From: Antedon mediterranea
Lineage: Eukaryota; Animalia; Echinodermata
Direction: 5' to 3'
DNA length: 64,000 nt
Assembly: GCF_964355755.1 (NCBI RefSeq)
Contig: NC_092673.1
Span: forward strand, 16,675,648-16,739,647
Part shown: piece after piece, positions 1 through 63,135 of the stretch
Layout of the letters: every line of letters begins with the position of its first letter
Numbering within the stretch: position 1 is the stretch's first letter
Translations under genes and position numbers: made by a program
Notes under the pieces: model-generated
Told to the model about the DNA's origin: nothing
The model's input: only the letters and a program-made list of their open reading frames with translations
Databases searched by the model: none

Positions 1-241
1 TTGAAGGTTCGATATATAAAATATATTTGATTTTCTTGTTTGTACTTTTTGGCATGGATACGTTAATTGAAATTCCAGCCGATTTGGTGACGGCATACAA
101 TTGCGTGAGATCGATCTCTGTTCGACCGTCACCCGTCAGCGTTGCACCCCACAAGTCGTCCGTTATCAAGATAGGCTTTGACTTTTCGACAAGTCCACTA
201 GGCAGACTATCCGTAAATCTTTTCCAAGCATCAATCAACAT
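1..241 (-). CDS. Partial hypothetical protein running off the left edge (MLIDAWKRFTDSLPSG...)
   Basis: Manual translation: open minus-strand frame from ATG at 241 to the window edge, divergent from the portal-like ORF. Confidence 0.4.
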   Translation of the reverse strand, partial: MLIDAWKRFTDSLPSGLVEKSKPILITDDLWGATLTGDGRTEIDLTQLYAVTKSAGISINVSMPKSTNKKIKYILYIEPS

Positions 242-372
242 TTTTGTGACCGCTGCTGCTGCTGCTGCTGCTGCTGCTTCTGAAATGTGTGGTTATCGGC
301 AACGAATACTCAAAGTAGTCAATTGTTTGAAAGTGAATCGAATCGGTGGAAATCACATCACCTCTGGCCAAA

Positions 373-1890
373 ATGAATCTTCTGGGCGGGAAAGTAATGC
401 CCCTGACTACGGTTGATAGTAACGTGACCAAAAAGACAGTTGACAGCATTAGAGCATCCATTGATTCAGAGACTCGAGACGCTAACATGTTCCTCGACGC
501 AAAAGACTATGCACGACATGTGTTTGAAAAACGCAAAACATGCATGACGGCCGTCAATGAAGAGTTTAAGAACAAAACGTTTTATCTACTCGACGAAGAG
601 CACGCCAAACTATTGCGTCGAACGTTCGATCAGTTGCCAATGTGCATGTGTATACTCAATAGACTGTGTGCATCCATCTCGGTAAAATCAATGTTTGAAC
701 ATGGAATGCGTGCTAGTGCCGAAGCGATCGTTAGAACGCAGTGCACAACCGTCGAAATACCATCGCCGACTTCATGTACAGTTGCCGTCTTTTGTCAAAC
801 GTACAAGGAATCCATCGAACGTTTCATACGCGACACCATTCGATGTATATGGATCTATGGATTTGTGGTGACGACGTGTGTCGATGGTCGTCCGGTTGCC
901 GTCGACATGGACGAATGTTTAGTATTCAGAGACGACGAAGGTGATCTGTATGCTAGATCGATTAAAAGCCAATCTCGTTTGCGTGTCGTTGTCGTTCATC
1001 GGCCAGGCGTTGACGGTAGAATGCACAGCGCTCTATCAAATCTGCTCGCCAGCTGTGAAAACGTACGTCTCTTGACCGAATATCATTTGGCGGCCGTGCG
1101 CAATTCGGCCACGAACATTATTGTGACCGGTCCTAAAATTCAATCAAAATCTAACGGCATGAATGATGGCGAAGATGACAACAACAACAACAACAACACA
1201 GAAGACTTGGTTACCGGAGCAGCCGTAGCGAATCTGATCAAAGCCAGAACCATGGGCGTTCCAATGGCAACTTCTCTACTGGACGACGTTAACAAAACGA
1301 GCACAGTAGACGAAAAAGAGAAACTTATCGGCGATCTAGTCAGATGCAGAAAGGAGAAGGAAAAGTTGAGAAAGAGTTTTCTTTTCGATAAAAGACGTGA
1401 ACGACACTTGTTACCGGTTATGACGACCGAGGATGTTGGTGACGAGAGAAGTATGTTGGCGTCCAGATTGGATGTAAAAACTCAATCGGGACTCGAACAG
1501 GCATCCGCCTCTCTCGATGTTCTCGTCAGAAACGTTCTATTGGGATCAATACCGGTGTCAGGGGGAGGCGCCGGCAACGTTGCACGCCACGGAACAACGT
1601 CTGCGCTTCCAGCGAAAATGTTACAGCAGATTGTCAGCGATTGTTCGGCATCGTGGCAAGATTTCATCGTCAGTTCACTGCTCGACGATTGGATGAAAGA
1701 ATACGGCGTACCGCTGAAACCGTGGACAAAGAGAGCGTTTGAGGACATTGAAATGATGATGCCCCTTCTGCCCTACTTTCGATCAGGCTGTGGACGGCGT
1801 ATGCTCGCCGAAATGCTCGACGTTTCTGAACATGATTTCACGTCAACTTTTCAGCTTACTACTACTACTACTACTACTTCTTCTTCTTGA
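373..1890 (+). CDS. Putative portal protein (mirusvirus/herpes-like)
   Basis: ~505 aa; segments FIRDTIRCIWIYGFVV...RPVAV and RPGVDGRMHSALSNLL...AAVRNSATNIIVT resemble the mirusvirus portal pattern as recalled; central coiled coil; context with MCP and protease. Confidence 0.5.
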   Translation: MNLLGGKVMPLTTVDSNVTKKTVDSIRASIDSETRDANMFLDAKDYARHVFEKRKTCMTAVNEEFKNKTFYLLDEEHAKLLRRTFDQLPMCMCILNRLCASISVKSMFEHGMRASAEAIVRTQCTTVEIPSPTSCTVAVFCQTYKESIERFIRDTIRCIWIYGFVVTTCVDGRPVAVDMDECLVFRDDEGDLYARSIKSQSRLRVVVVHRPGVDGRMHSALSNLLASCENVRLLTEYHLAAVRNSATNIIVTGPKIQSKSNGMNDGEDDNNNNNNTEDLVTGAAVANLIKARTMGVPMATSLLDDVNKTSTVDEKEKLIGDLVRCRKEKEKLRKSFLFDKRRERHLLPVMTTEDVGDERSMLASRLDVKTQSGLEQASASLDVLVRNVLLGSIPVSGGGAGNVARHGTTSALPAKMLQQIVSDCSASWQDFIVSSLLDDWMKEYGVPLKPWTKRAFEDIEMMMPLLPYFRSGCGRRMLAEMLDVSEHDFTSTFQLTTTTTTTSSS

Positions 1891-3772: not shown

Positions 3773-4759
3773 ATGGTATCACGATTCCATCCTTACGCCG
3801 CCGGTGATGGTATTAGATGGTACACGGGCATACAGCCAAATTCACCGATCAAAGCGACAGAACGTCGTGGCGAGTACAGACTCGATGAGACAGACATGAC
3901 GGCCGGTACGTCGCGTATACCAAATTTCGGCGATAGAAGAAACTTTATGTATCCAACGTCAACTCACGCACAAAAGGATACGGACGGTGTTCGTGACATA
4001 ACAACGTATCACGAATTCTTCAACAGATCCATTCAATTCAATCGAGGCGATATGCTGTTTCTTTACAACGGTCAAAGGAAAATGTCTACTGCAACACCGG
4101 CTCCTGTAAACTGTTACGCGTTACCCGAACCCAGTTTTAAAGCGAGTACGGACAAGGCAACGGTGCCGTTGCCTCACCTCCAAAACATCATCAAAGAAGA
4201 GGTTACACTCGACATCAACGACTGTTTCGATCGCGACGTGCCGCACAACGAATACATCAAAACGGTGTGTCAACGACGTGGATTCGACAGCTTTGGAGCC
4301 GTACTGGCACGCATGAAAACTCCTAGAGATTTCCTCTCTTACTTTCTGCCTATCGGCTATCAGCTTTCTTTCGGTGGCAATCAATGGTTTACGAACGAAT
4401 CGTATCCGTGCATAACAACGCAACATTTCGGTAAGATGATTACAACACTGTCTGGAGTTCACGAATCGTGTCGATTGAATGCAAAAGCGGGTACTAAACT
4501 GTACTTGGCCGTAGGCATGCTACCCGGAGTAACCGACGCTCTTAACTATCCATATCCTTCGCTGTTTTTTAGCAACGATCATTATATTCCCAATCAACTA
4601 AAGTCTATGGGATTTGTTTGTCGATCGAGAAACGGTTGTGTGACGCCGTGTATGGTGAAAGCCATCGGAGAGTTTGCTACCGATTTCTACGGTAACGTTC
4701 GCAGTCCCGAGATTGAACTGTTTATGAACAGATACTTTCGACCGTATCACTTTTCTTGA
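3773..4759 (+). CDS. Putative capsid triplex protein (second triplex candidate)
   Basis: ~328 aa; FLPIGYQ...ITTQHFGK...AGTKLYLAV resembles mirusvirus triplex pattern; (CA)n tract directly upstream of ATG. Confidence 0.35.
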   Translation: MVSRFHPYAAGDGIRWYTGIQPNSPIKATERRGEYRLDETDMTAGTSRIPNFGDRRNFMYPTSTHAQKDTDGVRDITTYHEFFNRSIQFNRGDMLFLYNGQRKMSTATPAPVNCYALPEPSFKASTDKATVPLPHLQNIIKEEVTLDINDCFDRDVPHNEYIKTVCQRRGFDSFGAVLARMKTPRDFLSYFLPIGYQLSFGGNQWFTNESYPCITTQHFGKMITTLSGVHESCRLNAKAGTKLYLAVGMLPGVTDALNYPYPSLFFSNDHYIPNQLKSMGFVCRSRNGCVTPCMVKAIGEFATDFYGNVRSPEIELFMNRYFRPYHFS

Positions 4760-4836: not shown

Positions 4837-5478
4837 ATGGGAAAGTCAAAGGATATGATTGCGGAATTGAAACAGGAACTTGAAGCTATGCAAGTTGATA
4901 AGTTGAGTATGTTACAAGAACAAGATCGACTGAGAGGAAGAGTAATCGCTGCCGAAAAGTACGCCAACTCGTTACCGCAAAACATGTACAAAGACTTGAC
5001 ACATGCCGCCATGGACGCGCATAGGGATGTGGTAAAGGAGGAGACACAACGATACGAGATAGACAGCCTAAAGGCAAGACTCGCTGAAATGACTGTGAAG
5101 TATGAACAGTTGCGAAGGAAACTGCCCGAAACTTTGGAATTATGTTCCAAATACAAGGGGGCGACCGAGATGATCAAACTTTTAAAAATTCAATGTGAAA
5201 TCAACAAACAAGACTTTATGAAGGAGCAAGCGGATCGTCAAATGTTGGCCAGAAGAGCAAACTTACCGTACAAACAAACCGTTACAGAAGTCATACGAAA
5301 GCTGAATCTATTGATCGGACAGGATTATGTTGATGGTGATCTTGAAACAGACTGTGCCGACGTCAATCAAATAGAAGCAAATGTTTGTCATGCAATTGAA
5401 CCGGTGCAGTTTCCTGAAGATCCATTACTAGACACGTGCGATCAACTGATGGCCGAATACGGAGCAACGGTGGTGTGA
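4837..5478 (+). CDS. Coiled-coil hypothetical protein
   Basis: Heptad-rich ORF followed by AATAAA near 5520. Confidence 0.6.
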   Translation: MGKSKDMIAELKQELEAMQVDKLSMLQEQDRLRGRVIAAEKYANSLPQNMYKDLTHAAMDAHRDVVKEETQRYEIDSLKARLAEMTVKYEQLRRKLPETLELCSKYKGATEMIKLLKIQCEINKQDFMKEQADRQMLARRANLPYKQTVTEVIRKLNLLIGQDYVDGDLETDCADVNQIEANVCHAIEPVQFPEDPLLDTCDQLMAEYGATVV

Positions 5479-9476: not shown

Positions 9477-9987
9477 GTCGTTAGAAAAGTACTTGGAGTG
9501 GAGACGCTACTGGACGTTTGACAGTGACTTTTCTGACGCCTGCGATCGTGACGAGAATGTAATCGATAGAGTCGATGTTCGTGGTTATATGGCCATGCAG
9601 GATGAATTCGACGTACTATGCAAAAGATCAACGTGCGAAGCTTGGCGAATTGCCAGTGAACATTGCGACTACACGTTTCACATTATTCGCGACAAGGTAG
9701 TTGCGGAGGAATTGGTAACAGACGGTGGTGGTGGTGGTGGTGGTGGTATAGTAGACGTTCCTCTTCTTCTCTATCCAAGATTTGAATTTGGAGGAGGAGT
9801 AGGAGGAGGAGGAGGAGGTTCACATGTAGACCACATACTCGTTCCTAGGGCTCTTATAAAACAGTTGCGAAAGGCATGGATCATGATCAATTTAGATTTG
9901 ATTATAGAGTACAATATACTGGCAAAAGAGAGCAGTGTGAAAATAGCAAAATTTATTTATGGACTACAGTTGTTACCAGGACACTGA
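9475..9987 (+). CDS. Hypothetical protein with poly-Gly tracts
   Basis: 170-aa ORF overlapping the primase start. Confidence 0.55.
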   Translation: MSLEKYLEWRRYWTFDSDFSDACDRDENVIDRVDVRGYMAMQDEFDVLCKRSTCEAWRIASEHCDYTFHIIRDKVVAEELVTDGGGGGGGGIVDVPLLLYPRFEFGGGVGGGGGGSHVDHILVPRALIKQLRKAWIMINLDLIIEYNILAKESSVKIAKFIYGLQLLPGH

Positions 9988-10711
9988 TGATGATGATACG
10001 ATCGTCGATCGCTTCACTCATCAGAACGGCATTCAACAGCGTATCGTCAACTATTACAACACAGATCGATTCGCATCCGTCGGTCTGCTGGCCAGTCACG
10101 CTAAACTTCCTCGTGCCTATACCGTGGCACAGACGTACGCCCGGTGTCAACCTCCTCCAGCCAGTAGGGACGTTGGAGCGTGGACTTGTTTCGCTCTCGA
10201 TGTACCTAGACGCATATCCGTGTTGGCATCTCAGATGTGCCAAGCGGGCAGCGGCAGTAGAAGTTTTGTGGTTGCGTCACCGACCGCACTAGAGCGTAGT
10301 ATTCAATCATGCTCCGTGTCGTCGTACAGCGAAGTGTTTAACGAAAACCTCCACATTCACAACATACCGATCGACATCGACGATGCAAACAGACCTCAGT
10401 GCAGCGATGAATCTGCCCTGAGAACGGCCGAAAGCATCAAGCGTGCACTTTCGGCCGAGCTCGGCCATTTGCCCGACAATCCACACGTATACTCGAGCCA
10501 AGGAAGCGACAAGTTTTCTTTACACGTATACCAACGTTTACCGAGACCGATTGAAAACATTGACGTTCTCTCGTCCATGATGACAGCTTTGTGCAAAGTC
10601 TATCCGGAGATGAGATGCGTCGATCTGTCCATTTACGCCGGTGGTAGATCGTTGCGTTTGCCGGGATGTTACAAAATCTCATCGAAACCTATTAAACTTT
10701 TGCGTCGTGTA

Positions 10712-10752
<41 letters not shown>

Positions 10753-11152
10753 AGGCGTCGATGTTCGTCGAGCATTGGCGCACTACTGCTCCGACAGCGT
10801 TTGTCAAACACCATACGATCTGTCACATTTGGTAAAAAAGCCAAAGAAAGATGTATCAACAACAACAACCACCACCGAAGAAGTTTTGTCCGAAGAGCAG
10901 TTGAGAAATATTGTGGACGACGTGCAACGTGTCACCGGCATGGAAATAACGCGAACGACGAGACGAGGCAATCGTTTCTTCTTTGACACCAATGAAAGTT
11001 TCTGCCAAATGTCAGGTCGATGTCATCGTTCATCCAGACAGAAATTGCAATATACCTTGCGTTCAGGTTATGTGAGAAGGGAATGTTGGTCGTCGAAATG
11101 TGCTCACAAATTCTTGGACGTTGTCTGCGACACGACACGACCGTCAACGTAG
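9959..11152 (+). CDS. Archaeo-eukaryotic primase (PrimPol/herpes UL52-like) with C-terminal Zn finger
   Basis: Motif I IDID, motif II KFSLHVY, motif III VDLSIYAGGRSLRLPGCYK; Zn finger C..GRCHRSS...CWSSKC. Confidence 0.9.
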
Positions 11153-29698: not shown

Positions 29699-29739
<41 letters not shown>

Positions 29740-47529: not shown

Positions 47530-48762
47530 TTAAGAGAGAATGGCTTTCTGACGTTTATCTATTTTACCTCGACAAATCGGACACAACAGCAAACTGTTTG
47601 AACACGACCAGCAGGCGACCAAATGCGAACATGGAATGAAAAGAACACAAACGTCAGCGTCCATGCATATCTTACATGTTTTTTTTTCGCGTAAATCGCG
47701 CACAACAGATTGCAAATCTTCTTCTTCCTCCACTTCTTCCTCTTCTACCACTGTTGGTTTATCGTTCACTGGAATCGTGACAGCGTTCAGAAGCTCAAGG
47801 CTAGACGTAAAGTTTCCACCGGTTCTCTTCACGTGATCGTTTACAGTAGTCGATACATGTTGCATGTCAAAACCCATTTCTAAAACTTTCACAACGATTT
47901 CAGAGCGCATTGCAATATCAAACGGACTTTTTGACGAAATAAGAGCCGTCTCGATGAAAGGAAAACCTTTTTCGATTCTCAACCAATTGCAGAACGGAAA
48001 CCACTTTGCATGCTCGATCCAAGGATTATCGTCTAATTGTCAGTCTTTCAGTCCACCGCCGCAATGGAAACACATTGCCTGGCTCCGATTGATTGCAAAG
48101 AATCCGGCCTCGGCTATTCCGTTCGGCGTATGATCGGTAGCCCATACTGTAGTAAACGTCATTTTTCGAACATTCAAAAGAGCGTATTGTGGATGCATTG
48201 CCCGTTGCCTATTGGTGGTGGTGGTGGTGGGGGTCGCCACGGTGGCCGCGGTGGATAACATGAACTTACACAACGGAAAATGTTTTCTATGCTCTTCGTC
48301 GACATTCACTCCTCTTTTCCATCGCTCAAGTAAACCGTTGCAAGAGAAGCATTCGACTACGTCACAGCATGACCTGTAATAAAATCCAGACTTTGCTAAA
48401 GTGCACGCCGATACGATGTGTCCAAATGGCCAGTTTTTAAAAGTCGACAATCTGACCATATGCGAGTTTGAGTCGACCAAATGTGTTTTACTGCCGATTA
48501 AAGGACTGCTGTTACCACATGACATCAGTTTGCACAACGGGAAGTGTTTCTTGTGCTCTGTATCGGCATCTGCTCCGGCGTTCCATCTCGAAAGTTTACC
48601 GTGACAACGGTAACATTCTACCCGGTCGTCTTGCCCCGTATAAAAGAAGCCCGACATTGCTAACGATGTAGGCGATATCACGTGTCCCGCAATCCAAAAC
48701 TCATACGTGGCCAATCGTCTTTCATAACATTCCATCGCGCCTGTATGCACTATTTTATTCAT
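47530..48762 (-). CDS. iap: Inhibitor of apoptosis (3 BIR + UBA + RING) interrupted by an in-frame TGA at 48042-48040
   Basis: BIR motifs C..C...W......EH.K.FP.C three times; the frame reads GLKD*QLDDNPWIEHAKWFPFC into UBA (LEMGF) and RING (CKICMD...PCSHLVACWSC...CPICR). Confidence 0.92.
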
Positions 48763-49354: not shown

Positions 49355-50767
49355 ATGATTTCATCCAATGATCTGGTGAAAACGACCGCAGAGAAGGTTA
49401 TGCCTAAGTCAGATGATTTGTTACAGGACGAAAACGCTTCGTTGAAGAAAAGTGTAAAATGTATACACCTTCTAGAACAGTTGTTGAAAGACCGTGATAA
49501 ATCGTTGAACCACTTAGAGAAGACGGTAAAAAACTATAAATTATGTATTGAACATCTACAATGGCGCTTACACAAACACAACTTGGACTCATCAGTTGAT
49601 TTGAAAGAACATGAAATATTCGAGCCTGGTCACGATAAACCGATTTTAATAAGCTTGTTGAATGACGCTATACGATATAAAAGATTTCTTGACGAGAAGT
49701 TTAGCTCCGAAGAGGTAAGACGAAACTAAGTGTGAGAATATTTGTCATGAATTCGTTAAAATTATCATAGTGGTGTGAGTGTGTGATTTATTATTATTTT
49801 TTTTTAATGTTCAGGTTGCCGAAGCAAAAGAAACCATTTCTGTTCTTGAGAAAGAAGTTAGTAAGCTGTGTGTACAGTTGAAACGGAAAGAGAACGAACT
49901 CATTGTTGTTTTAACTAAAATGAGATCCTCAGACGACGAGAAAGATGTAGTAATTAGTAAGTTAAAATGTCAGCTACGAGATTATTTTTCACAGCGTAAC
50001 AATGATGACGCTGTTCGTGACACGTTGAGCTCCGAAATAAGAACATTAAAATCAAATACTGAACAGTTTGTTGAAGAGAAAAAGAAGATAACAAATGAAC
50101 TAAAAGCATATGCGCAAAGAGAGAAGGTATGGGTACAGGAAAGAAATATGTGTTTTGCTCACGCTAGAATTTTACATTCAGAATCAAAGTTCGAAGATGA
50201 ATGTAAAACGTTGCAAGAACAGGTTCGAAATTTAAGTCGTGAAAATACAGATTTATGTAGGCAATTAAAAGAGATAATTGTTATGAACACTCGCTGGCAA
50301 AAGTACTCTGAACAAAGAGAAGCACACGTTGTGCAGTTGAAACAACAATTGAAAGTATCTGAAAACAAAGTTTTCAAGAATCATTGCCTTATTTCTGAAC
50401 TTGAGCGGATGGAAAAAGAGAAACGAAAAAAAGAAATCGATACTGCTGTTCTTAGTTTGGCAACAGATTTGGGAAAGACATGCGAATTGAATTGACTAAA
50501 CACAATAACAGACTTGATGAAATAATTGGTCAATATCAAGAGACGTATGCGTCACTTCAACAATCTTACTTACCTTCTTCTAATACTCCCGATATTCTTG
50601 AATTAGTTTGTGATGATGATGATTATGCAGCTGTAGAAGACGGTAATTTGGATGAATTATTACAATGTCCTCGTTTTCTGAAAGAGTTTAATATCATAGA
50701 ACATGTTCAGTTAGTTGATCATTTAGATACATGTGATGTTGATGAATACAATAATTCTATCTTATAA
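49355..50767 (+). pseudogene. Host-derived TNIP2(ABIN-2)/CEP55-like coiled-coil gene with a spliceosomal intron and a frameshift
   Basis: EABR-like MNTRWQKYSEQREAHVVQL; C-terminal LQCPRF...LVDHLDTC Zn-finger remnant; phase-0 GT-AG intron 49715-49814; AATTG duplication near 50485 shifts the frame. Confidence 0.7.
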
Positions 50768-52488: not shown

Positions 52489-54129
52489 TCATCTACATGG
52501 TCGTTTAGCAGATGAAACCTCTTCTTCATCATCGGCCACCACCACCGTATTATATTCGGATCTGGATTTTTCGACGCTTACTATGAGCGGTACGTCGTCG
52601 TTGACTTTCACATACATTCGGCGTATTCCATCATGTAATTTTAATTTAGCGTTGGTGCCGAATGAATTCGACAAATGTTTAATGTCCTCGTCGCTGAACA
52701 CGCAGAATTCTACTGTAGTTGCAATATATTGACTCAGTCTGAGAGCCGACATGAGAAACGACATGATCAGTTTCCGATCGTTTGACATGATGTGCATATG
52801 TTCCACCACCACAACGTTTCGATTCGGGCTTTCGTTGCCAAATTTGATGTCTCCAATCGAAATGTCATGTTCGTGTACTAGATACACCAATCTATCTTCA
52901 ACGCGTTTCAACGAAAACTGTTTACCGCCAAACAATACAGTTGAGTCGTGTAGTTTCGAAGCCGCCTTTTCTAGTTTCGATACACATCGACGTTCCGGTA
53001 CAGGGTTCAAACATTCTTTTAAAGCGTCCGTAAACTCGACTCCCAAGAACGGACTGAATCTATCGATGTATGAATTGTATTTCTTGCTGCTGGAACAATG
53101 CGACAGTGAAAATGCGTCGGTCAGTGATCTATCCGGATTCACGTGCGTGTACCAAAACTGGAGATCACGTTCGTTCATCGGACCACGTAGTTCTACCGAA
53201 TGTCTACACACCTTAATCAAATTGTTGTACGCAAATTTGTCCTTTTTTAAATCACAATAGTCGCTTTGCGTCTCAAACTTATTCCGATTGTTGTCATCAT
53301 AAAACATTAAAGCCACACTCATCGAGGCGCTGTAAACGTCCGAATTTCGACGCAACATCTTCACTCGTCTGTCTGACATCACATGACTTATGTCCCTGAA
53401 AGGTATCCTTGTCAGTTTCTCCTCACTCCTGACGCACGAATAGTTTGGTTCGGTGTCGGAAAAGCGTAGTCGACTTCCCGGTGGCAAGTACTTTGACGCC
53501 ATGGAACCGGTTCGAACGATACCCAAACACCGATGGCCATGTCTCTCTTTCACAGAAACGCCAAACGTGCTTGCACCGTGCTTTGTAAACTCGGCAGAAC
53601 CAAAGTCTATTATACGAAATCGATTATCTAATCGACTATACGCCACGTTCTCGATTGTTATGTCGTTGTGAACCACACCTGCGTTTTCGAGAAACGTCAA
53701 CGCTTTGCAAACATGTAACGAAAGCGTTTTCACGCAAGGCAGAAGCTTGTAACAATAGCGTAGCCTGTACAGATTACATCCTTCGTTTCTCATTGTGATT
53801 GATATTGCGATGTTACGCCGATAAGAAACTTCGAGCAGACGAGGCGTACACATTCGAGCCGCGTCCGTTTGTTTTAAGTGTGCAAGAACCAAAACTTCCT
53901 TGTTTCCCGACAAGTTCACGTCTTCATGCTCGAGCGTAGACGTGTGGCTGGCCGTGAAATCATACAATGTCTTTATCACAACGTGCACGTTTTCTTTAGC
54001 TGTCTTCACTTTGCCATGTTTCCCACTTTCTTGAATTCGAATAGCGCCGTACTTGCCGTTTACAGCCGGTAAACTTTCATACTTTCTCGTTGTTATTTGC
54101 GTCTTGTACAGGGGTAGAAATTCAGCCAT
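52489..54129 (-). CDS. Ser/Thr protein kinase, paralog 2
   Basis: SGKHGKV, VVIK, KE, HNDITIENV, IDFGSA, SDVYSA; shares RDISHVM.DR.VK and LNP.PE.R with paralog 1. Confidence 0.85.
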   Translation of the reverse strand: MAEFLPLYKTQITTRKYESLPAVNGKYGAIRIQESGKHGKVKTAKENVHVVIKTLYDFTASHTSTLEHEDVNLSGNKEVLVLAHLKQTDAARMCTPRLLEVSYRRNIAISITMRNEGCNLYRLRYCYKLLPCVKTLSLHVCKALTFLENAGVVHNDITIENVAYSRLDNRFRIIDFGSAEFTKHGASTFGVSVKERHGHRCLGIVRTGSMASKYLPPGSRLRFSDTEPNYSCVRSEEKLTRIPFRDISHVMSDRRVKMLRRNSDVYSASMSVALMFYDDNNRNKFETQSDYCDLKKDKFAYNNLIKVCRHSVELRGPMNERDLQFWYTHVNPDRSLTDAFSLSHCSSSKKYNSYIDRFSPFLGVEFTDALKECLNPVPERRCVSKLEKAASKLHDSTVLFGGKQFSLKRVEDRLVYLVHEHDISIGDIKFGNESPNRNVVVVEHMHIMSNDRKLIMSFLMSALRLSQYIATTVEFCVFSDEDIKHLSNSFGTNAKLKLHDGIRRMYVKVNDDVPLIVSVEKSRSEYNTVVVADDEEEVSSAKRPCR

Positions 54130-54141: not shown

Positions 54142-56622
54142 ATGTCGGCGATTTACAGATGGCAAGACACAAATTCAAAGAAATTGTACGCGGCACTGAT
54201 CGTTGAACGTAAATGGATAATACTGGAACGTTTCTCCCCTAGTGATGAATGGAGTCCACCGTTGCCTACACTCGACGTTACACCGGACACATTGGAAATC
54301 GAAATGATAACAAAGCCAAGCTGGAACGGTGTTGTGTTCGGAGACTATAATCCGCATCCGTTGCGTGAGCGAGGAGTCGCAATGAGACCGACGCTAAATT
54401 TAGCTTCGAATCTGTCGATGGCGCAGATATCCGAATGGCCAACGCATGTCGGTAAGTTCACCGATACCGATATGACGTACGAGAAGAGAACCGATGTTCT
54501 TGTGATTAACGGCTGTAGGGTAAACAGATCATATCCGACAATTTCGAGAATCATCAATCATCATCTTCACCACCACCGTCCCAATGTGAAAACTAAAAAC
54601 AAACGTCGACTCATCACGCATATTACACCACCACCACCATCACCACCACCACCACCACCACCATCATCATCAGAAGAAGAAGACTTTATGCACACGCCTC
54701 GAATGTTGAAGCTGTTCACGTCGATGACAAGCGATCCGAACGTAGCTCTATTGGCACTCTCATTTGAGCTGTTCACCGCGTCTACCAAAAATGTGCACGC
54801 GCTACGACGGCTGCTCTCGAACATATGCGAGAGAACATCGGCATCAGATCACATACTGACGCAATCGAAACAGTTTTGGTTTCATATGCGATCGCATGGA
54901 ATCAATCAACACAACTGGCATTCAAAATCTCCATCGAATGTCGTTGCAAAGGCGAGAGAGTATCATCGTCCGCCAGTACAAGACGAATTGATTCTGGCCA
55001 GCGTTCTGTTGTGGGAAACGGCCACGTTTGCGCGTGGTAGACGTACCCCGTTCACTTTTGAAGCAGTAAAGATGCAGTGTTATTTGAACGAAGCGCGTGC
55101 TGCTGCTGCTGCTGCTGCTGTTGAAGAAGAAGAAATCCTACGCAGAGCGTTGAATGAAGTCGCCAAGAAAAGAGAACGCACGACGTTCGCGTTAGAAGCT
55201 GAGAAGATGGGTCTAGAGAACTACGCAGTTATGAACGGTGTCTACATCGATCTTGAAACAGTTTTGTTCAATCTTCCAAAATTACGCGCTACTCTCTACA
55301 AAGAAATCGGAAAAAGATTGTTACTGTTTGAGGATTTTGAAACGACGATTCAATGTCTGTGCCTGGACGTGCTTCGACAAGCTTCTTCCTTCTTGAGCAG
55401 TTTCGAACTCATCAAATCCATCGCTCCTTTGTATCCGAAAAAACGCAGACGAATCACACAGAAACGCATCGAAGGAATCGACAGGTTTCTTACGAATTTT
55501 GAGCGACGCGTTGACGGCAAACGAAGAAAACGTTTTGTCAAGTACCTGCAAACTTGGATTCCGAAATTTCCTGTTCCGGAACACGACGGTTACGCTTCCT
55601 TACAACAAAGATGCGATCAAAACGAGGCGCTTCGACTGTTTGCAATTGCCTATCCGGCCATAACATTCTCGTTCGCCGTTCCCGAAGTAAAAAACGACGC
55701 CCAGCTTATGTTTGCTCTCGCCAACTGCACATCACACCTGGGTAGACTGATGTGGTTTGACTTTGATCCGGTGACGGTACGCATCAGATCATCCGTGATC
55801 GGTCTCACGCCCCTACAAGAACAACGCCTCGAAATGGCTTCTCTTCAACCAGCGTATGACGCGTACGAAGAGTCTATCCGCGTCACTCAGCACATTAGAC
55901 ACAGTATACCTTTCATGCACGCATCGATATTCGAAGGCGTTCAAGCCAACGTGGTTTGCCGACAGAACGAACGCTACGTAACTCGTCTCTCGGCATATCC
56001 TCTTATCTTGGCCTCGTATGACGTTATAGACGCGAATGAAGGTAATCGGCAACCTCCACAACCCAAACACGGAGAATGTACATCCTATTACCAGAACGTT
56101 GTCACTGTCGACAATGCTGGAGTGGTTAAATGGAATCATACATCGCCATGTTTTGCGCGATTCATTCAATGTGCAAACGTTTTGCTTTTATGTCATAAGA
56201 AATCAGACTTTGTTCGTGGCCCTATTCATTCCCCTGAAGATAGCGTTCACGTACTTTGTCAACTTGCACTCGATCACAAGGACGACGATAACGATGACGG
56301 AGAACTTGCGTCACCGAGATCGTTTCCTTGTCATCTACCTCGACCGTTTGATGACAATATAGTATTGATAAACGATGACAGTGGTGGTGATGGCGAGGAG
56401 AAAATACGGTTCTGTATCGTCAGCCCGGACGATATGAGGCCTTTTTTCCCAAAAGATTTCATCGAAAGTATCATTGCCGATCCCCATCGGACGCCCGTTA
56501 TACAGAAAAAGATGGTGTTTTACTTGAGGGCCGATCTTACCAATGAATACACAGAAAATCACTTTCTCTCCGACAAGGACAGAAGTGTTCTTGTAGCCGG
56601 TTCAATCATAAGACGTCGGTGA
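54142..56622 (+). CDS. Large hypothetical viral protein
   Basis: 826-aa ORF, divergent from kinase 2. Confidence 0.7.
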   Translation: MSAIYRWQDTNSKKLYAALIVERKWIILERFSPSDEWSPPLPTLDVTPDTLEIEMITKPSWNGVVFGDYNPHPLRERGVAMRPTLNLASNLSMAQISEWPTHVGKFTDTDMTYEKRTDVLVINGCRVNRSYPTISRIINHHLHHHRPNVKTKNKRRLITHITPPPPSPPPPPPPSSSEEEDFMHTPRMLKLFTSMTSDPNVALLALSFELFTASTKNVHALRRLLSNICERTSASDHILTQSKQFWFHMRSHGINQHNWHSKSPSNVVAKAREYHRPPVQDELILASVLLWETATFARGRRTPFTFEAVKMQCYLNEARAAAAAAAVEEEEILRRALNEVAKKRERTTFALEAEKMGLENYAVMNGVYIDLETVLFNLPKLRATLYKEIGKRLLLFEDFETTIQCLCLDVLRQASSFLSSFELIKSIAPLYPKKRRRITQKRIEGIDRFLTNFERRVDGKRRKRFVKYLQTWIPKFPVPEHDGYASLQQRCDQNEALRLFAIAYPAITFSFAVPEVKNDAQLMFALANCTSHLGRLMWFDFDPVTVRIRSSVIGLTPLQEQRLEMASLQPAYDAYEESIRVTQHIRHSIPFMHASIFEGVQANVVCRQNERYVTRLSAYPLILASYDVIDANEGNRQPPQPKHGECTSYYQNVVTVDNAGVVKWNHTSPCFARFIQCANVLLLCHKKSDFVRGPIHSPEDSVHVLCQLALDHKDDDNDDGELASPRSFPCHLPRPFDDNIVLINDDSGGDGEEKIRFCIVSPDDMRPFFPKDFIESIIADPHRTPVIQKKMVFYLRADLTNEYTENHFLSDKDRSVLVAGSIIRRR

Positions 56623-56944
56623 ATGAACACACACGCACACAATTCAAAACTCGGTGTTCAATTTAGTTATTATTAAGCATTGGCAATTTGGAACAGGACA
56701 GTGTAGAAATTGAAACATCATCATCCATTTAAGTTTAGTACTTTTTTTACGTATGGTGTTTGTTAGCACGCGATTAATAGCGCCTAAAATTTTCGGTGAA
56801 GATATATACTTATTGTCAAACCTGCTAATGATAAAATAATTTTCATAAAGCCCGGCGAGCAGTCTTGTCCAAAAAAAAAAAAGAGAGCAAAAGGGTTTAA
56901 TTTGTGATTGTGAGATTAATATTAAAATAATAATTAAAAAAAAT

Positions 56945-57888
56945 TTAATTTCAACACAAGGCTCCTTTTGTGGTGACACGAGCCATATTTTCTTTTATTA
57001 TCCCTAACACAATGTTCTCGAAAAAAAAAATTGACCATAACGTGTCACTTTGTAAACTAAACGGTATACATTCTTTTAGTTATAGTTGTTCACTAACACG
57101 ATTTATTCGATAATGAACCTTAATTAAAAAAAAACAAACAAAAGTGTATTCGAAGTTATACTAAACGGTATATTAATAGAAGACAAAGTATTTGTTATCG
57201 ATGAAGGGATAATGAAATTGATATTATTATAATTTAAACGGCGTGTTTAGTATTTTGTAGTCCTGATAACGAATACAATAAGTAGTTCGCCCTCTATTGA
57301 CAAATAATATACCTGCGTTATACGCCGCGTGACAGACAATAATTATACTAGGCCTACTGTGTTTCTTAATGGGTATATTTTAGTTTTATTATAGAAGTTC
57401 TGTAACGCGATGTTGTCGATAAAGGGATAATGAATTGATAAAGGGATAATGAATTGATGATTGAGTGAGAAGTATAAGGAATGATCTAGAAGGTTAAGAA
57501 CATAATATTTTGTATAAGGGGATGTATGTTCTGTCTTGTGTGTAAACTGAATGCTTAAACATTGACGCACACTGCCATTGAGGTCGAAGTAATCTTTGCA
57601 TACGGATGCGTGTTACTGCTCTATCAAGATCAGGACTGCATTATTCACACACATAAAACACTGAGAGTAATAAAGAGAATCTATGCTTGATTGTTTTACA
57701 CTCGAAAAATGTATTAGTATTTTGTAATAAAATAAAGGTAATTCAAATTGTCACATGATGCATTAATAAATTAATTAATGTTCATAAACGTCCAAATACT
57801 AGTTTTCTAGCATTTGTATTAAAATAATGCCTGCTATCTGTCTATATAGCAGATATATTTTCATGTTTCGTTCTGCTCTGCATACGGG

Positions 57889-57935
<47 letters not shown>

Positions 57936-59770
57936 TTCTACTGACTGACTGACTGACGTTCACGATCTAACGTTACCGCTCCAAGAATTCAATACTACAA
58001 TACATTGTTTCTTGTAATATTGATATTGCTATACCTTTCAATGTTCATAAATGTCAATATGCTGGTGTCTCCTATTCCATCTATCTTTGGTACAGTTCTT
58101 GAGGATGAGGATACTAAAGACTGGATGGGGATAGACAAAGGTTCTGACGGCGAGGATAGTTATTGAAAACGAAGAAGAATGTGTAAGAATTTGTATAGGC
58201 CTAATCATGATCTAGAGTAGAAGTGAGTTATGTTAACAGATTGTGTGTGCTCAAAATAATCCATTAATCAAAATAATTATGCATTTTTAATTGTTGATTT
58301 TATATATGAAGATGATAATAAAATTGAAAGAAATTAAAGTGTATTCTTTATTCGTATTCATTGTTTAAGTGTGTAAAATTTCATGTAGATCCAGTAATAA
58401 TAACTAATGGTATCCAATGCGAATGTGTTGTGGTTATTGAATAGAACCAATGTAATGGTCCACTGAACTTCAAAGGCTGCTTTCTAATTGTTGATAATCT
58501 ATTGAATTCGGAAGTAATCTATTGAATTCGGAGGTGATTTGTTGAAATCGGGTCATATTTAATTGCCTTGAAAGAAATATAAAGCAAGTTACATATTTTT
58601 TTGGAAAGTTTAAAGAATGGAGATTAATATAATAATAATAATAATAAAATTTTAATTTCAACACAAGGCTCCTTTTGTGGTGACACTAGCCATATTTTCT
58701 TTTATTATCCCTAACACGATGTTCTCTAAAAAAAAAAATTGACCATAACATGTCACTTTGTAAACTAAACGGTATACATTCTTTTAGTTATAGTTGTTCA
58801 CTAACACGATTTATTCGATAATGAACCCTAATTAAAAAAAACAAACAAAAGTGTATTCGAAGTTATACTAAACGGTATATTAATAGAAGACAAAGTATTT
58901 GTTATCGATGAAGGGATAATGAAATTGATATTATTATAATTTAAACGGCGTGTTTAGTATTTTGTAGTCCTGATAACGAATACAATAAGTAGTTCGCCCT
59001 CTATTGACAAATAATATACCTGCGTTATATGCCGCGTGACAGACAATAATTATAGGCCTATTGTGTTTCTAAATGGGTATATTTTAGTTTTATTATAGAA
59101 GCTCTGTAACGCGATGTTGTCGATAAAGGGATAATGAATTGATAAAAGGATAATGAATTGATGATTGAGTGAGAAGTATAAGGAATGATCTAGAAGGTTA
59201 TGAACATAATATTGTATAAGGCGATGTATGTTCTCTCTTGTGTGTAAACTGAATGCTTAAACATTGACGCACACTGTCATTGAGGTCGAAGTAATCATTG
59301 GATACGGATGCGTGTTACTGCTATATCAGGATCAGGACTGCATTATTCAAACACATAAAACACTGAGAGTAATAAAGAGAATCTATGCTTGATTGTTTTA
59401 CACTCGAAAAATTTATTAGTATTTTGTAATAAAATAAAGGTAATTCAAATTGTTACATGATGCATTAATAAATTAATTAATGTTCATAAACGTCCAAATA
59501 CTAGTTTTCTAGAATTTGTATTAAAATAATGTCTGCTATCTGTCTATGTAGCAGATATATGTTCATGTTTCGTTCTGTTCTGCATACGGGATGTGTGTGT
59601 GTGTGTCTTCTACTGACTGGCTGACGTTCACGATTTAACGTTACCGCTCCAAGAATTCAATACTACAATACATTGTTTGTTGTAATATTGATATTGCTAT
59701 ACCTTTCAATGTTCATAAATGTCAATATGCTGGTGCTTCCTATTCCATCTATCTTTGGTACAGTTCTTGA
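56945..59770. repeat. Two direct ~1.15-kb repeats (about 56945-58102 and 58652-59770) separated by a homologous-region block
   Basis: Both start tttaatttcaacacaaggctccttttgtggtgacac and end ctatctttggtacagttcttga; differ in (GT)n length. Confidence 0.92.
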
Positions 59771-60376
59771 CCATTCATTGATTGTTTCAGAATTTATTAC
59801 CAGCATCGAACCGTGCTCCATTTTTATGTTCACAGGTTTAATGTTTTTGTTGGTGCGGTGTTCGAATCTACAGATTCTAGTAGGTCCCAGAGACATAATG
59901 CATACAGGACTTATTTTGCTCCTTTGTACATCATTAAGATAGCATTCCGCTGAATCCTCTGCTCTTGTCAAAGTTACCATATTGTAAAAATGACCAGTCG
60001 CAATGTGTATCCATTCACGCATTTCGAGTAGAAACTTTGGCCAGTAACACAGAGGACTTCTCGCTGTGTCGTCGATGTTTGTGTGAACTCCTATTTGGAA
60101 TGACAACTCCAAATCACCGTACGCTGCACATCTAATGTGATCTACTTCAGTGATCACATCGCGTAACTTATATAGAGAATCGAATAAATGTGTTTTCCTA
60201 CATTGTTTTAATATAGTGTCTGCTATCAGTCTATGTAGCAGATGTACACGAACGCATTTCATGTTATCTTCCGGTCTGCATACGGTGTGTGAATGAAAGC
60301 CGAAATAAAACTCATCTTCTGACTGGCTGACGTTCATGATTACTTTATTGCTACAAGAATTCACTACAACTTCCAA
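59663..60376 (-). CDS. AlkB (ALKBH2/3-like) 2OG-Fe(II) dioxygenase homolog lacking catalytic residues
   Basis: YNMVTL...SPVCIMSLGPTR..RFEHR...MEHGSMLVI.....EW..TVPK...ILTF; HxD, distal H and RxxxxxR are not present; first ATG at 60337. Confidence 0.75.
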   Translation of the reverse strand: MEVVVNSCSNKVIMNVSQSEDEFYFGFHSHTVCRPEDNMKCVRVHLLHRLIADTILKQCRKTHLFDSLYKLRDVITEVDHIRCAAYGDLELSFQIGVHTNIDDTARSPLCYWPKFLLEMREWIHIATGHFYNMVTLTRAEDSAECYLNDVQRSKISPVCIMSLGPTRICRFEHRTNKNIKPVNIKMEHGSMLVINSETINEWSRTVPKIDGIGSTSILTFMNIERYSNINITTNNVL

Positions 60377-60427
60377 TTAAAGTTTGAAACTAAAACTCCA
60401 TACTGGTCGATTTTTATACTTTGCGAT

Positions 60428-60862
60428 GAAGGTTAACTACACGCGTTGTCAACAAACAACGAAACCGATGAATGATTGTCGATTATACTGATGTGTATGT
60501 GTGGTGCGCGCTTTAAAATTCGTATTGAATATATCGTGCCTTCTCTTCCTCCTACCCGGCTTAATTTGCGTATGGTTTTCGAATGATGATCATGAAACAC
60601 ACAAACGGGTGTAATTCCATCGTTAGTTACTTTAGTGTTACAATAAAACCGTCTCTCGGCAATATGATGGAAATAAGCGTCACTGTCGGTAAATGTATAC
60701 ACCGGTCCCAAAGAGTCAGGGTCAATTACTTTTTTTTAAGAAATATGTTTAATGTGTATTATTATTATTATAGTTTAATATAAGCGTATTTTATAAATTT
60801 AATCTCCATTGATTCTATCATCATATTTTAAAATCAAAATGCTATGTTTTAAATTCTATTTG

Positions 60863-60902
<40 letters not shown>

Positions 60903-61381
60903 TCCCTCTCCTTCTCTCCTTATTAATTTAGATTCGACTATGTAGAAACGGAATTTAATTTCCAAATTAAAACACTGCATTGTAACAATATTATAATCGG
61001 TCTGCTTTTCTTTTATCGATGATGACAATAGAAATAAGGGTAGGGCGTGTGTATGTATCACCGCCGGTCAGTGTACACACCAGGTCACAAAGCTTTAAAG
61101 AAATATTTTTAATTGTTATCCCGAATATGTGTGTTAGAGTAATTCGTTTTGGTATATAATCATTTTGGTATACTAACAATTTGAACAAGCTGCCTCTACG
61201 CGCCTAGTCGTAAATCCAATCCTAGATTCTATATTTACCGATATTGCGCCCCCTATATAGTTTTTGATAAATTACTAATAATGTTATGGTATCGATAGAT
61301 TGTAAGCCAGCTGAATGGTTAGTTCTTGAGTCTCGTAATGTAACGCTGTAGCATTAGGCTAGGGTTCGAGAATTGATTTGA

Positions 61382-61412
<31 letters not shown>

Positions 61413-62452
61413 TTAATATTTGTTTTACTCACCATCTTCTTTATTGACCATAGTTAAGGTTAACTACACGCGATTTGTCAACAAACAACGAAACCGATGA
61501 ATGATTGTCGATTACACTGATGTGTATGTGTGGTGCGCGCTTTTAAATTCGTATTGAATATATCGTGCCTCCTCTTCCTCCTACCCGGCTTAATTTGCGT
61601 ATGGTTTTCGAATGATGATCATGAAATACACAAACGGGTGTAATTCCATCGTTAGTTACTTTAGTGTTTCAATAAAACCGTCTCTGCAATATCATGGAAA
61701 TAAGCGTCACTGTCGGTAAATGTATACACCGGTCCCAAAGAGTCAGGGTCAATTAATTTTTTAAAGAAATATGTTTAATGTGTATTATTATTATTATTAT
61801 AGTTTAATATATTAAGCGTATTTTATAAATTTCATCTCCATCGATTCTACCATCACATTTTAAAATCAAAATGCTATGTTTTAAATTCTATCTAGGTTTC
61901 TCTCTCTCTCTCTCTCTCTCTCTCCTTCTCTCCTTATTAATTTGGATTCGACTATGTAGAAACGGAATCTTCTCTCCCTCTCCTTCTCTCCTTATTAATT
62001 TGGATTCGACTATGTAGAAACGGAATTTAATTTCCAAATTAAAACACTGCATTGTAACAATATTATAATCGGTCTGCTTTTCTTTCATCGATGATGACAA
62101 TAGAAATAAGGGTAGGGCGTGTGTATGTATCACCGCCGGTCAGTGTACACACCAGGTCACAAAGCTTTAAAGAAATATTTTTAATTGTTATCCCGAATAT
62201 GTGTGTTAGAGTAATTCGTTTTGATATATAATCATTTTGGTATACTAACAATTTGAACAAGCTGCCTCTACGCGCCTAGTCGTAAATCCAATCCTAGATT
62301 CTATATTTACCGATATTGCGCCCCCTATATAGTTTTTGATAAATTACTAATAATGTTATGGTATCGATAGATTGTAAGCCAGCTGAATGGTTAGTTCTTG
62401 AGTCTCGTAATGTAACGCTGTAGCATTAGGCTAGGGTTCGAGAATTGATTTG

Positions 62453-62507
<55 letters not shown>

Positions 62508-63135
62508 ATATTTGTTTTACTCACCATCTTCTTTATTGACCATAGTTAAGGTTAACTACACGCGATTTGTCAACAAACAACGAAACCGATGAATGATTGT
62601 CGATTACACTGATGTGTATGTGTGGTGCGCGCTTTTAAATTCGTATTGAATATATCGTGCCTCCTCTTCCTCCTACCCTGCTTAATTTGCGTATGGTTTT
62701 CGAATGATGATCATGAAATACACAAACGGGTGTAATTCCATCGTTAGTTACTTTAGTGTTTCAATAAAACCGTCTCTGCAATATGATGGAAATAAGCGTC
62801 ACTGTCGGTTAATGTATACACCGGTCCCAAAGAGTCAGGGTCAATTACTTTTTTTTTAGAAATATGTTTAATGTGTATTATTATTATTATAGTTTAATAT
62901 AAGCGTATTTTATAAATTTCATCTCCATCGATTCTATAATCATATTTTAAAATCAAAATGCTATGTTTTAAATTCTATCTAGGTTTCTCTCTCTCTCTCT
63001 CTCTGCCCCTCTCCTTCTCTGCTTATTAATTTGGATTCGACTATGTAGAAACGGAATTTAGATTCCAAATTAAAACACTGCATTGTAACAATATTATAAT
63101 CGGTCTGCATTGCTTTTATCGATGATGACAATAGA
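60428..63135. repeat. About 2.5 tandem copies of a ~1.05-kb unit (starts near 60428, 61456, 62548); candidate terminal repeat
   Basis: Each starts aaggttaactacacgcg and contains (CT)n; the two complete units also contain (TA)n; the third copy is truncated at 63135. Confidence 0.92.

Follow-up and report, generated by a model that had tools for sequence, protein, structure and literature searches.

An apparently undescribed large DNA virus with a predicted herpes-type capsid protein and animal-type genes in an assembly of the echinoderm Antedon mediterranea

The stretch of DNA analysed here (the window; 64,000 nucleotides of contig NC_092673.1, assigned to Antedon mediterranea) derives from an undescribed large DNA virus, which likely forms a new family-level lineage of eukaryotic duplodnaviruses outside the three herpesvirus families and whose host is likely an animal. 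In the fuller reading that we favour, if only slightly, the window represents the right-hand portion of the genome of a virus with a predicted herpes-type capsid, animal-type cargo genes, a likely animal host and a likely nuclear phase; this virus is likely to have its origin on the large-capsid side of the mirusvirus radiation and not in any herpesvirus family. The tie to mirusviruses, which were compared by their published description, rests on the size of the major capsid protein (MCP), the source collections of its sister clade, and candidate genes for TBP and Snf7. The discovery of mirusviruses has raised the open question of how protist-infecting duplodnaviruses gave rise to animal herpesviruses, and a survey of mirusvirus hosts in eukaryote assemblies omitted animals (PMC10827195). 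With its herpes-type tower, its animal cargo and its sequence-detectable tie to a wider MCP clade, a family-level lineage of this sort could provide taxa that break the long branch between mirusviruses and herpesviruses. It would be either a herpesvirus of a fourth kind or a case in which relatives of mirusviruses moved into animals a second time. For screening animal assemblies and sequencing runs, the 46-sequence MCP alignment used here is a ready probe.

All ORFs named in an earlier note on this DNA are present at the positions given there. Among them is an intron-free ORF of 1,092 aa (27813..31091, forward strand) that the note had proposed as an HK97-fold MCP. An AlphaFold model based on the 46-sequence alignment (pLDDT 71, pTM 0.67; a previous model from 9 sequences, pLDDT 34.8, was discarded) predicts an HK97 floor at about residues 60-430 and 800-875 and a herpes-type tower at about residues 432-797. 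In this model the ORF does adopt the fold whose absence the note had named as decisive against its proposal. Foldseek matched the model to the MCP of EBV in the PDB (E 5e-20), while in BFVD the best structural matches are alloherpesvirus MCPs, with Lake sturgeon herpesvirus at E 4e-27 and TMq 0.63. In VIA, three herpesvirus MCPs align over 819-880 residues (HHV-6B: Z 15.7 over 880 residues), HK97 itself over 219 residues (1ohg; Z 12.7, rmsd 3.9) and dozens of phage capsids at Z 10-13; separately, the HSV-1 upper domain (1no7) matches residues 432-797 (Z 10.5, rmsd 3.8, 325 residues). The match is full-length and extends to all three herpesvirus families, with 9-12% identity to herpesvirus MCPs in the structural alignments. 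One MCP homolog (P0010) matches Phage_capsid_4 in Pfam (E 2e-4). As modelled, the protein would combine the HK97 fold that marks the MCPs of Duplodnaviria with the large tower, including an upper domain, that marks those of Herpesvirales.

Placement of the virus within Herpesvirales is a serious reading, albeit one that we consider doubtful. It draws on the full-length match to MCPs of all three families together with the separate match to the HSV-1 upper domain, on an E-value against Lake sturgeon herpesvirus that is much lower than the published value for a mirusvirus MCP of 786 aa (2e-16, likewise against Lake sturgeon herpesvirus), and on the TMq values: of 10 herpesvirus rows in BFVD, 8 have 0.47-0.63 and two have lower values, 0.28 and 0.36. 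Published medians are 0.51 between herpesviruses and 0.36 between mirusviruses and herpesviruses (top value 0.57), so that the structural scores of the window MCP lie in the herpes-herpes range and favour this placement. Moreover, the protease discussed below matches a herpesvirus Pfam model, and embedded Herpesvirales-related regions, with polymerases between Ortho- and Malacoherpesviridae, are reported in those parts of a recent preprint available to us (bioRxiv 10.1101/2025.04.19.649669). However, the best structural matches of mirusvirus MCPs are herpesvirus MCPs as well (3 of 4 in the PDB); the identity of the best match does not discriminate, therefore, and was dropped as a route to assignment.

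Searches by sequence point away from the herpesviruses. Among 1.84 billion representatives the window MCP has 11 matches, 8 of them close, all of which fall in its own clade or in a distant clade of MCPs of 1,127-1,199 aa from ENA, JGI, Logan and NCBI contigs, the sole other kin detectable by sequence. A profile of the distant clade matches the window MCP over residues 40-1069 (E 9e-43). Judged from these alignments, this public-assembly clade is homologous to the window MCP along its full length and is more diverse than the window clade, which again speaks against a place within Herpesvirales. In a quick, unrooted tree without outgroup (37 rows, 9 partial rows of the 46 being left out), the two clades comprise 11 and 26 rows and are separated by a branch with an SH-aLRT of 100. 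None of 16 aligned MCP members matched the herpesvirus MCP models in Pfam, and the window MCP and the 46-sequence profile found no PDB sequence at E up to 10, although orthoherpesvirus MCPs have been solved; searches of PDB sequences with the MCP and two profiles gave no significant match. There was likewise no usable match in the ESM Atlas for the window MCP or its homolog P0027, no locus in IMG/VR with the MCP, alignments A1 and A7, P0021 or PolB (see below) as queries, and no locus in GTDB genomes.

The window MCP is thus not recognisable by sequence as a member of Orthoherpesviridae, nor of Alloherpesviridae or Malacoherpesviridae, provided that MCPs of the latter two are among the unnamed representatives. 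That the virus is a divergent member of Malacoherpesviridae or of Alloherpesviridae, resembling Teratorn, is disfavoured and in our judgement very improbable, notwithstanding that alloherpesvirus MCPs are its best structural matches, that its protease matches an alloherpesvirus-derived model, and that lancelets and an annelid are known to carry herpes-like elements. MCP pairs within a family remain detectable by BLAST (within Alloherpesviridae at 20-22% identity, E 1e-13 to 1e-29), whereas the window MCP finds just the 11 representatives; identity in structural alignments is low, the Pfam models match none of the aligned members, and the known invertebrate elements match the malacoherpesvirus polymerase at E 1e-98 or better. 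These searches, used in place of a tree with herpesvirus references, show no sign of nesting in a known family, which the note had also named as counting against its proposal.

Besides the MCP, the earlier note had listed a protease-scaffold, a portal, two triplex proteins, a family B DNA polymerase (PolB), an AEP primase and TBP- and Snf7-like genes. The MCP, the protease and PolB stand; the remainder have no significant family match and are kept here as candidates, with motifs that we assume to be plausible by eye in the portal, triplex, primase, TBP and Snf7 ORFs. The putative capsid maturation protease (36970..38310, forward), whose C-terminal extension may be a scaffold, matches Herpes_ORF28 of Pfam (E 5.8e-7, 29.5 bits, under the 40-bit cut-off), as does its homolog on L001, a related contig of a metagenome collection (E 4.1e-6). 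Both proteins keep the His, SLS and E-x-SLV-x-x-G-x-R motifs, which we take to be of assemblin type; Herpes_ORF28 is presumably derived from alloherpesviruses. A capsid maturation protease, a further mark of Duplodnaviria, is accordingly recognised in two members through matches below the curated cut-off. A profile of the pair retrieved chance matches or none among PDB sequences.

Directly upstream of the MCP, in the window as in L001, lies a triplex candidate (26826..27746, forward) proposed from this position and a motif, with an L001 homolog at 32% identity (E 3e-39). Neither this ORF nor the second triplex candidate (3773..4759, forward) matched a Pfam, PHROG or NCBIfam family, and an hhalign comparison of the latter with the former pair was not significant. 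The portal candidate (373..1890, forward) has 505 aa, close to the ~460 aa of mirusvirus portals in a published table, and had no significant match in Pfam, PHROG, NCBIfam or PDB sequences. The same holds for the primase candidate (9959..11152, forward), whose DxD, SxH and C-terminal Cys/His motifs we take to be those of the AEP/PrimPol family. Convergent on the end of the MCP gene in both the window and L001 is a candidate nuclease (30960..31751, reverse; L001 homolog at E 8e-17), the motifs of which we read as PD-(D/E)xK-like. The Snf7/ESCRT-III-like candidate (17185..17976, forward) has an L001 homolog (E 8e-16); it had no Snf7 match in Pfam, PHROG or NCBIfam, and the profile of the pair gave chance matches or none among PDB sequences. 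The TBP-like candidate (45117..45896, reverse), recognised by eye, had no TBP match in family databases and chance matches in PDB and plasmids; it matches phrog_6179, of unknown function, at E 3e-5. The coordinates of the primase, TBP-like and Snf7-like candidates are our own assignments and were absent from the earlier note.

PolB (41236..43476, forward) is short (746 aa) and very divergent, with a clear match to the Pfam model DNA_pol_B (E 1.8e-20); in the alignment its polymerase motifs are present, while the exonuclease motifs look eroded. It has one close homolog at 47% identity, and the other 29 matches reach at most 68 bits. No herpesvirus polymerase occurs among its 45 PDB matches or 30 database matches (limited to 410-1,306 aa). 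This, too, tells against membership of Herpesvirales; the published regions of starfish and ribbon worm, by contrast, had been assigned by means of their polymerases. Further genes are a candidate XRN/FEN-type 5'-3' nuclease (13509..15008, forward; XRN_N E 0.009, below the cut-off), two protein kinase paralogs that are 33% identical (45839..47503, reverse, Pkinase E 3e-5; 52489..54129, reverse, E 8e-8) and an 826-aa protein of unknown function (54142..56622, forward), which weakly matches two L001 ORFs (E 3e-5 and 4e-5). By eye, ORF 15081 is a candidate for a jelly-roll protein. None of 51 ORFs scanned matched an RNA polymerase family, in agreement with the absence of such subunits remarked on before, and the window has no match for heliorhodopsin, histone, integrase or transposase, nor for tRNA, Rfam or telomere-repeat searches.

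The animal-type cargo comprises a multi-immunoglobulin-domain protein of 806 aa (21703..24123, forward; Ig_3 E 3e-19, in 3 stretches), a CARD-caspase (40423..41232, forward; CARD E 9e-10, Peptidase_C14 E 1e-20, with solved caspases matched down to E 7e-18) and an inhibitor of apoptosis (IAP; 47530..48762, reverse) in which profiles match three BIR domains, a UBA and a RING, interrupted by one in-frame stop at 48040-48042. These profile searches confirm the three identifications made earlier. The TNIP2-like gene reported with them (49355..50767, forward) fares less well: it has a 100-nt GT..AG intron (49715-49814) in phase with the next ORF and a weak EABR match (E 1.8e-4, below the cut-off), but its ORF is broken near 50480-50495. 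It lies in a low-GC block (GC 0.32 in 48.8-52.4 kb). A coiled-coil protein (4837..5478, forward) contains a NEMO CC2-LZ-like stretch (E 9e-7, below the cut-off). To our knowledge, CARD-caspases and BIR-UBA-RING IAPs occur only in animals; BTB-Kelch proteins are not strictly confined to them. L001 has nine genes in common with the window and a BTB-BACK-Kelch gene of its own, so that, as far as the sequences tell, animal cargo is present in two members (caspase, IAP and Ig in the window, BTB-BACK-Kelch in L001). In a run of another organism, X5, the Ig gene and the MCP also lie together on a single contig of 6.7 kb (record 11, 21695-28394), and the Ig cargo is therefore not an assembly chimera.

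Sequence ~98-99.9% identical to the window occurs in runs of three organism labels, possibly metagenome labels, from four studies. This bears on the proposal that the contig is a co-assembled contaminant, namely a mirusvirus of a cryptic order whose host is a protist or another microbe associated with the animal, inside it or on its surface, and which had acquired its animal-type genes indirectly. The homologs from mixed public assemblies, the low depth of the element in 2 of 4 runs (X8, X9) and the three labels at about 98% identity would suit such an origin, but we consider it improbable: there are at least four separate animal-type immune or apoptosis genes, the CARD-caspase and the IAP among them, depth is even across 11.6 kb (about 30 in run X1, about 128 in run X5), and the broken IAP and a frameshifting deletion in the MCP fit integrated copies. 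Uncovered bins in run X9 prove nothing, since that run may be DNA or RNA; no RNA data set is among the runs listed as containing the sequence. Selection seems to have acted on the lineage until recently. With ORFs making up 95% of the stretch, 10 of 12 listed indels, grouped in about four intergenic spots, fall outside them. Of 33 classified substitutions, 18 are silent against an assumed neutral expectation of 30%; the substitutions are a tool-chosen subset (40 rows listed, 189 others not), and the Ig gene accounts for 22 of the 33, 11 of them residue-changing.

The window opens inside an ORF (3..416, 5' open) and has no ORF with a Walker A motif, hence no visible terminase ATPase, from which it follows that the viral genome likely continues leftward; the description of the genome as compact or small is unsupported. 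That genes end in AATAAA is correct in part: the signal is enriched at -33..+120 of the stop (14 of 46 genes against 7.9% of random windows, p 8e-6), while 32 of 46 genes have none there, including the MCP, the protease and both triplex candidates. Together with the spliceosomal intron, this enrichment is a sign of nuclear expression, as had been supposed. The AT-rich right end (56912..63160) contains a ~1.7-kb duplication, a ~1.07-kb triplication and decayed copies, as well as an AlkB-like ORF (59663-60337, reverse; 2OG-FeII_Oxy_2 E 9e-4), and is likely still viral since CpG is not depleted there. A candidate host flank follows (63135..64000), in which a 12 x 30-nt minisatellite interrupts the third repeat copy and gives way to CpG-poor DNA (4 CpG against 11.5 expected in 63496-64000, Poisson p 0.011); with ~870 bp only, the CpG evidence is weak. 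Endogenisation, suggested earlier, receives modest support from this junction-like right end, the IAP stop and a 142-nt frameshifting deletion at full depth in the MCP of run X5. We regard integration of the window copy, weakly shown as it is, as fairly probable, and the copy as probably lightly decayed.

The predicted fold, the cargo profiles and the sequence searches together support the core of the earlier proposal, namely a virus of eukaryotes that has an HK97-type capsid, carries animal-type cargo and falls outside the herpesvirus families known so far. In such a virus, host RNA polymerase II would transcribe the genome, and the viral PolB and the likely primase would copy it. Together with a likely portal and the two putative triplex proteins, the MCP could build a procapsid around the protease-scaffold, which would then excise itself as in herpesviruses, before DNA is packaged by a terminase encoded outside the window. 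The IAP, the CARD-caspase and the TNIP2- and NEMO-like proteins might modulate apoptosis and signalling through NF-kB, and the site of action of the Ig protein might be the cell surface. More speculatively, and with rather little confidence, the window clade and its sister public-assembly clade could form the stem of Herpesvirales: the herpes-sized tower would have arisen in protist-infecting mirusvirus relatives, and the window lineage would be a surviving early animal-infecting branch that kept TBP and Snf7 yet already carries apoptosis and NF-kB genes of animals; several of its members would still be circulating in animals and inserting into their genomes.

Among known systems, the malacoherpesvirus-like elements of Branchiostoma and Capitella and the fish element Teratorn are likewise endogenous or genome-associated herpes-like elements of animals. 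However, among the matches listed, those of the former to malacoherpesvirus ORFs have E-values of 1e-91 or below, and Teratorn is alloherpesvirus-related, whereas the window lacks the integrase or transposase match noted above. The regions in starfish and ribbon worm resemble the window as divergent herpes-like elements in an invertebrate-type genome outside the named families; compared by description only, they owe their classification to herpesvirus profiles and a tree of polymerases, and the parts of the preprint available to us describe them without capsid structure or mirusvirus tie (bioRxiv 10.1101/2025.04.19.649669).

With Herpesvirales (Lake sturgeon herpesvirus, ranid herpesviruses, Malaco- and Orthoherpesviridae) the window shares the predicted HK97 floor and tower with upper domain, a protease with a scaffold-like extension, IAP, Ig and kinase cargo, and a PolB without RNA polymerase in the window. 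The protease-scaffold fusion is conserved across Herpesvirales, according to the portion of PMC11565193 consulted. The window differs in its shorter MCP (1,092 aa against 1,188-1,439 of full-length BFVD targets), undetectable by sequence, in its 746-aa PolB without herpesvirus match, and in its TBP- and Snf7-like candidates. We know of no TBP or Snf7 gene from herpesviruses.

TBP and Snf7 are core genes of Mirusviricota (Gaia 2023; Medvedeva 2025), with which, and especially with the cryptic Class_01 / Extra_Order_11, the window shares a eukaryotic duplodnavirus module. Described mirusvirus hosts are unicellular. The window differs further in having no heliorhodopsin or histone match and an MCP encoded by a single intron-free ORF. 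Some mirusvirus lineages (Okeanovirales, Styxvirales) also have no RNA polymerase and are inferred to be nuclear, so that this absence does not separate herpesviruses from mirusviruses and was dropped as a herpes marker. The original description gave mirusviruses a tower 'substantially smaller' than that of herpesviruses, unlike the window MCP with its predicted herpes-type upper domain; four modelled mirusvirus MCP genes measure 2,040-2,691 nt. Small towers no longer define the whole phylum, since later-described MCPs reach at least 1,088 aa in marine Class_01 / Extra_Order_11, as far as the supplements of PMC12768974 consulted show, and MCP length was dropped as a ground for excluding Mirusviricota. 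Within that same material, the three genomes listed for Extra_Order_11, of 225-255 kb, score TFIID and capsid markers (PMC12768974).

The major capsid protein (MCP) of the window, the 1,092-aa product of ORF 27813 (ORFs are named by start coordinate), has six homologs at 38-60% identity, and comparison with 1.84 billion representatives returned 11 matches, eight of them close and three at 23-26% identity. A profile search with the MCP brought in a sister clade, giving 29 matches overall. The structural model built from nine sequences had a pLDDT of 34.8, that from 46 sequences a pLDDT of 71 and a pTM of 0.67. When the MCP model was compared with the PDB by Foldseek, all 28 matches listed were herpesvirus capsid entries (best E 5e-20, TMq 0.48-0.59, identity 9-12%). 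The ten BFVD matches with E <=0.001 comprise seven named herpesvirus proteins and three without a name; the MCP of Lake sturgeon herpesvirus ranks first (E 4e-27, TMq 0.63) and phage capsids rank lower. In VIA, alignments with three herpesvirus MCPs covered 819-880 residues of the model at Z 14.3-15.7. The HSV-1 upper domain on its own aligned with residues 432-797 (Z 10.5, rmsd 3.8) and HK97 with 219 residues (Z 12.7), so that the HK97 fold, which the earlier note had set as a test for this ORF, is seen in the predicted model. On these alignments ORF 27813 is predicted to carry a herpes-type tower on an HK97 floor.

The virus lineage is a family and not a single case. L001 (JAAUXV010236395.1), a single locus from a metagenome collection with a GC of 0.56, has nine genes in common with the window and holds the protease, a triplex candidate, the MCP and a convergent nuclease in one cluster. 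It also carries one Pfam-confirmed BTB-BACK-Kelch gene, which together with two look-alike ORFs occupies 1660-6740 and 14500-16050; the two look-alikes had no Pfam match. The sister clade (P0015-P0045) consists of about 30 MCPs of 1,127-1,199 aa, homologous to the window MCP over the whole length and without any Pfam domain, on contigs that reach 91 kb, apart from P0037, whose contig measures 1.34 Mb. Against the window MCP, the clade's profile aligns from residue 40 to residue 1069 (E 9e-43). Regional identity is 15-22% to this clade, against 34-57% inside the window's own clade. A quick tree without a root, computed from 37 rows of nearly full length, parts the two by a very long branch (4.85 + 4.31 changes per column, support 100). 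The sister clade might represent either a mirusvirus order with a large tower or an as yet unclassified group, and merits separate study.

The whole window contains 90 ORFs with an ATG start and at least 80 aa; the genes annotated take up 88% of bases 1-56,622 and 9% of what follows, and GC is 0.44 where genes are dense versus 0.32-0.33 in two repeat-rich blocks. A Pfam scan of 51 window ORFs confirmed PolB (ORF 41236), the Ig protein, CARD-caspase, BIR, UBA and RING domains, two kinases and an AlkB-like ORF, which bears out the polymerase, caspase, BIR/UBA/RING IAP and multi-Ig protein of the earlier note, as does the lack of any RNA polymerase match among these 51 ORFs for the absence it had reported. 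Matches to EABR, CC2-LZ and XRN_N fell below threshold; the protease (ORF 36970) matched Herpes_ORF28, in agreement with the assemblin type proposed for it, yet likewise below threshold. The candidates for portal (373), triplexes (26826, 3773), primase (9959), TBP (45117) and Snf7 (17185) were without significant match in Pfam, PHROGs and NCBIfam, as were the portal, primase, TBP and Snf7 candidates against PDB sequences; these labels stay motif readings.

Further ORFs include one with a weak BACK match (1843-3708, E 0.023), a protein (7103-8074) in which an 84-aa unit recurs 2.3 times in tandem, every copy bearing a zinc motif of the CxxC...CPCC type, and a possible HNH-type endonuclease (17968-19059, minus strand) with a Cys/His-rich C-terminal stretch and a weak PHROG endonuclease match (E 0.026). 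Two divergent paralogs with no assigned function (20334-21593 and 24574-25806; 19% identity, E 2e-8) flank the Ig gene, a possible ubiquitin ligase of 1,008 aa (32712-35738) has a weak RING-H2 match near its C terminus, and a small ORF (48860-49222) with a CxGC...HPSQxxHxxC motif, presumably of the kind found in Polinton-associated ORFs, opens a low-GC block. Trinucleotide runs in many ORFs of 1-56622, core genes included, give homopolymer tracts of 6-9 residues; in three aligned window/L001 gene pairs they are mostly missing from the L001 side. (TG)n tracts lie upstream of several starts (6727, 15081, 21703, 27813, 48762).

An AT-rich non-coding repeat, which could be an origin or a small mobile element, occurs as an inverted copy at 35784-36167, in the gap that precedes ORF 36429, and as direct copies at 51024-51884 and 56912-59770 (copies 77-95% identical). 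A duplicated block includes the AlkB-like 2OG-Fe(II) oxygenase ORF (59663-60337, minus strand) and decayed partial AlkB-like copies (57998-58114, 59516-59599).

The animal-type cargo (CARD-caspase, BIR-UBA-RING IAP, multi-Ig protein, TNIP2-like and NEMO-like proteins) makes an animal host likely, taken jointly over the readings as mirusvirus offshoot, deep Herpesvirales branch or member of Alloherpesviridae or Malacoherpesviridae. An in-phase 100-nt GT..AG intron and AATAAA near the stop in 14 of 46 genes suggest, from sequence, that the virus would be expressed in the nucleus; that genes end in AATAAA holds for these 14 stops and fails for the others. CpG observed/expected is 1.2-1.5 up to 63,100 and lower beyond, falling where a minisatellite interrupts the third 1.07-kb repeat, and the last 505 bp have four CpG against 11.5 expected. 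Given this fall, an in-frame stop in the IAP and a break in the TNIP2-like gene, the window copy is fairly likely to be integrated and lightly decayed, which gives modest support to 'probably endogenised'. The viral sequence is open on its left side, and no ATPase with a Walker A motif was found in the window, which therefore does not set the genome size.

The MCP region is present in nine sequencing runs from four studies and three coded organisms, four of the nine coming from one sample, which may be the source. Four runs were compared over window 21,000-32,600. X1 (organism A) is near-identical to the window at a depth of ~30, and X5 (organism B) is ~98% identical at ~128; one of its contigs extends from the Ig gene as far as the MCP, and its MCP has a 142-nt deletion at full depth. 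X8 (organism C, depth 0.5-7) has many differences in common with X5, and X9 (organism A, different study) has low-depth coverage in 14 of 30 bins. The differences look filtered by selection, since ten of the 12 listed indels lie outside ORFs, which span 95% of the compared stretch, and 18 of 33 classified substitutions leave the residue unchanged (36 listed X5 rows minus three adjacent; 189 further rows lie outside this subset). A 7.7-kb X1 contig (depth 5.7) matches the window in short collinear patches only, and X9 carries similar patches at depth 27-28. These divergent-relative patches (window 27712-32054) hint at a second family member in organism A, its load varying by sample, contig depth being no copy number.

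The virus is real and undescribed. It ranks as a family of its own among eukaryotic duplodnaviruses, with a capsid predicted to be of herpes type. The full-text literature searched, mostly without subscription papers, held no description of an animal-infecting mirusvirus or of this lineage, and the survey in PMC10827195 left Metazoa out. Judged by sequence, the virus is unlikely to belong to a known herpesvirus family. PolB is no help for placement between herpes- and mirusviruses, because it has one close homolog (47%) followed by 29 weak matches, the named ones archaeal or bacterial, in a search restricted to 410-1,306 aa, which longer polymerases would escape, and no herpesvirus polymerase is among its 45 PDB matches.

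The best reading, to which we give slightly better than even chances, is an offshoot of large-capsid mirusvirus relatives. Gaia et al. (PMC10132985) describe a tower that is 'substantially smaller' in mirusviruses and give median TM-scores of 0.51 for herpes-herpes and 0.36 for mirus-herpes pairs (top value 0.57); the scores of the window MCP fall in the herpes-herpes range, with a normalisation that may differ, and this speaks for the chief alternative, that the virus is a deep branch of Herpesvirales, which we consider less likely. In the accessible text of Medvedeva et al. (PMC12768974), three of four modelled mirusvirus MCPs also have a herpesvirus capsid as best PDB match, and cryptic Class_01 mirusvirus MCPs reach up to at least 1,088 aa, both of which weigh against a straightforward assignment to herpesviruses; one modelled mirusvirus MCP there matches the same Lake sturgeon herpesvirus target (E 2e-16).
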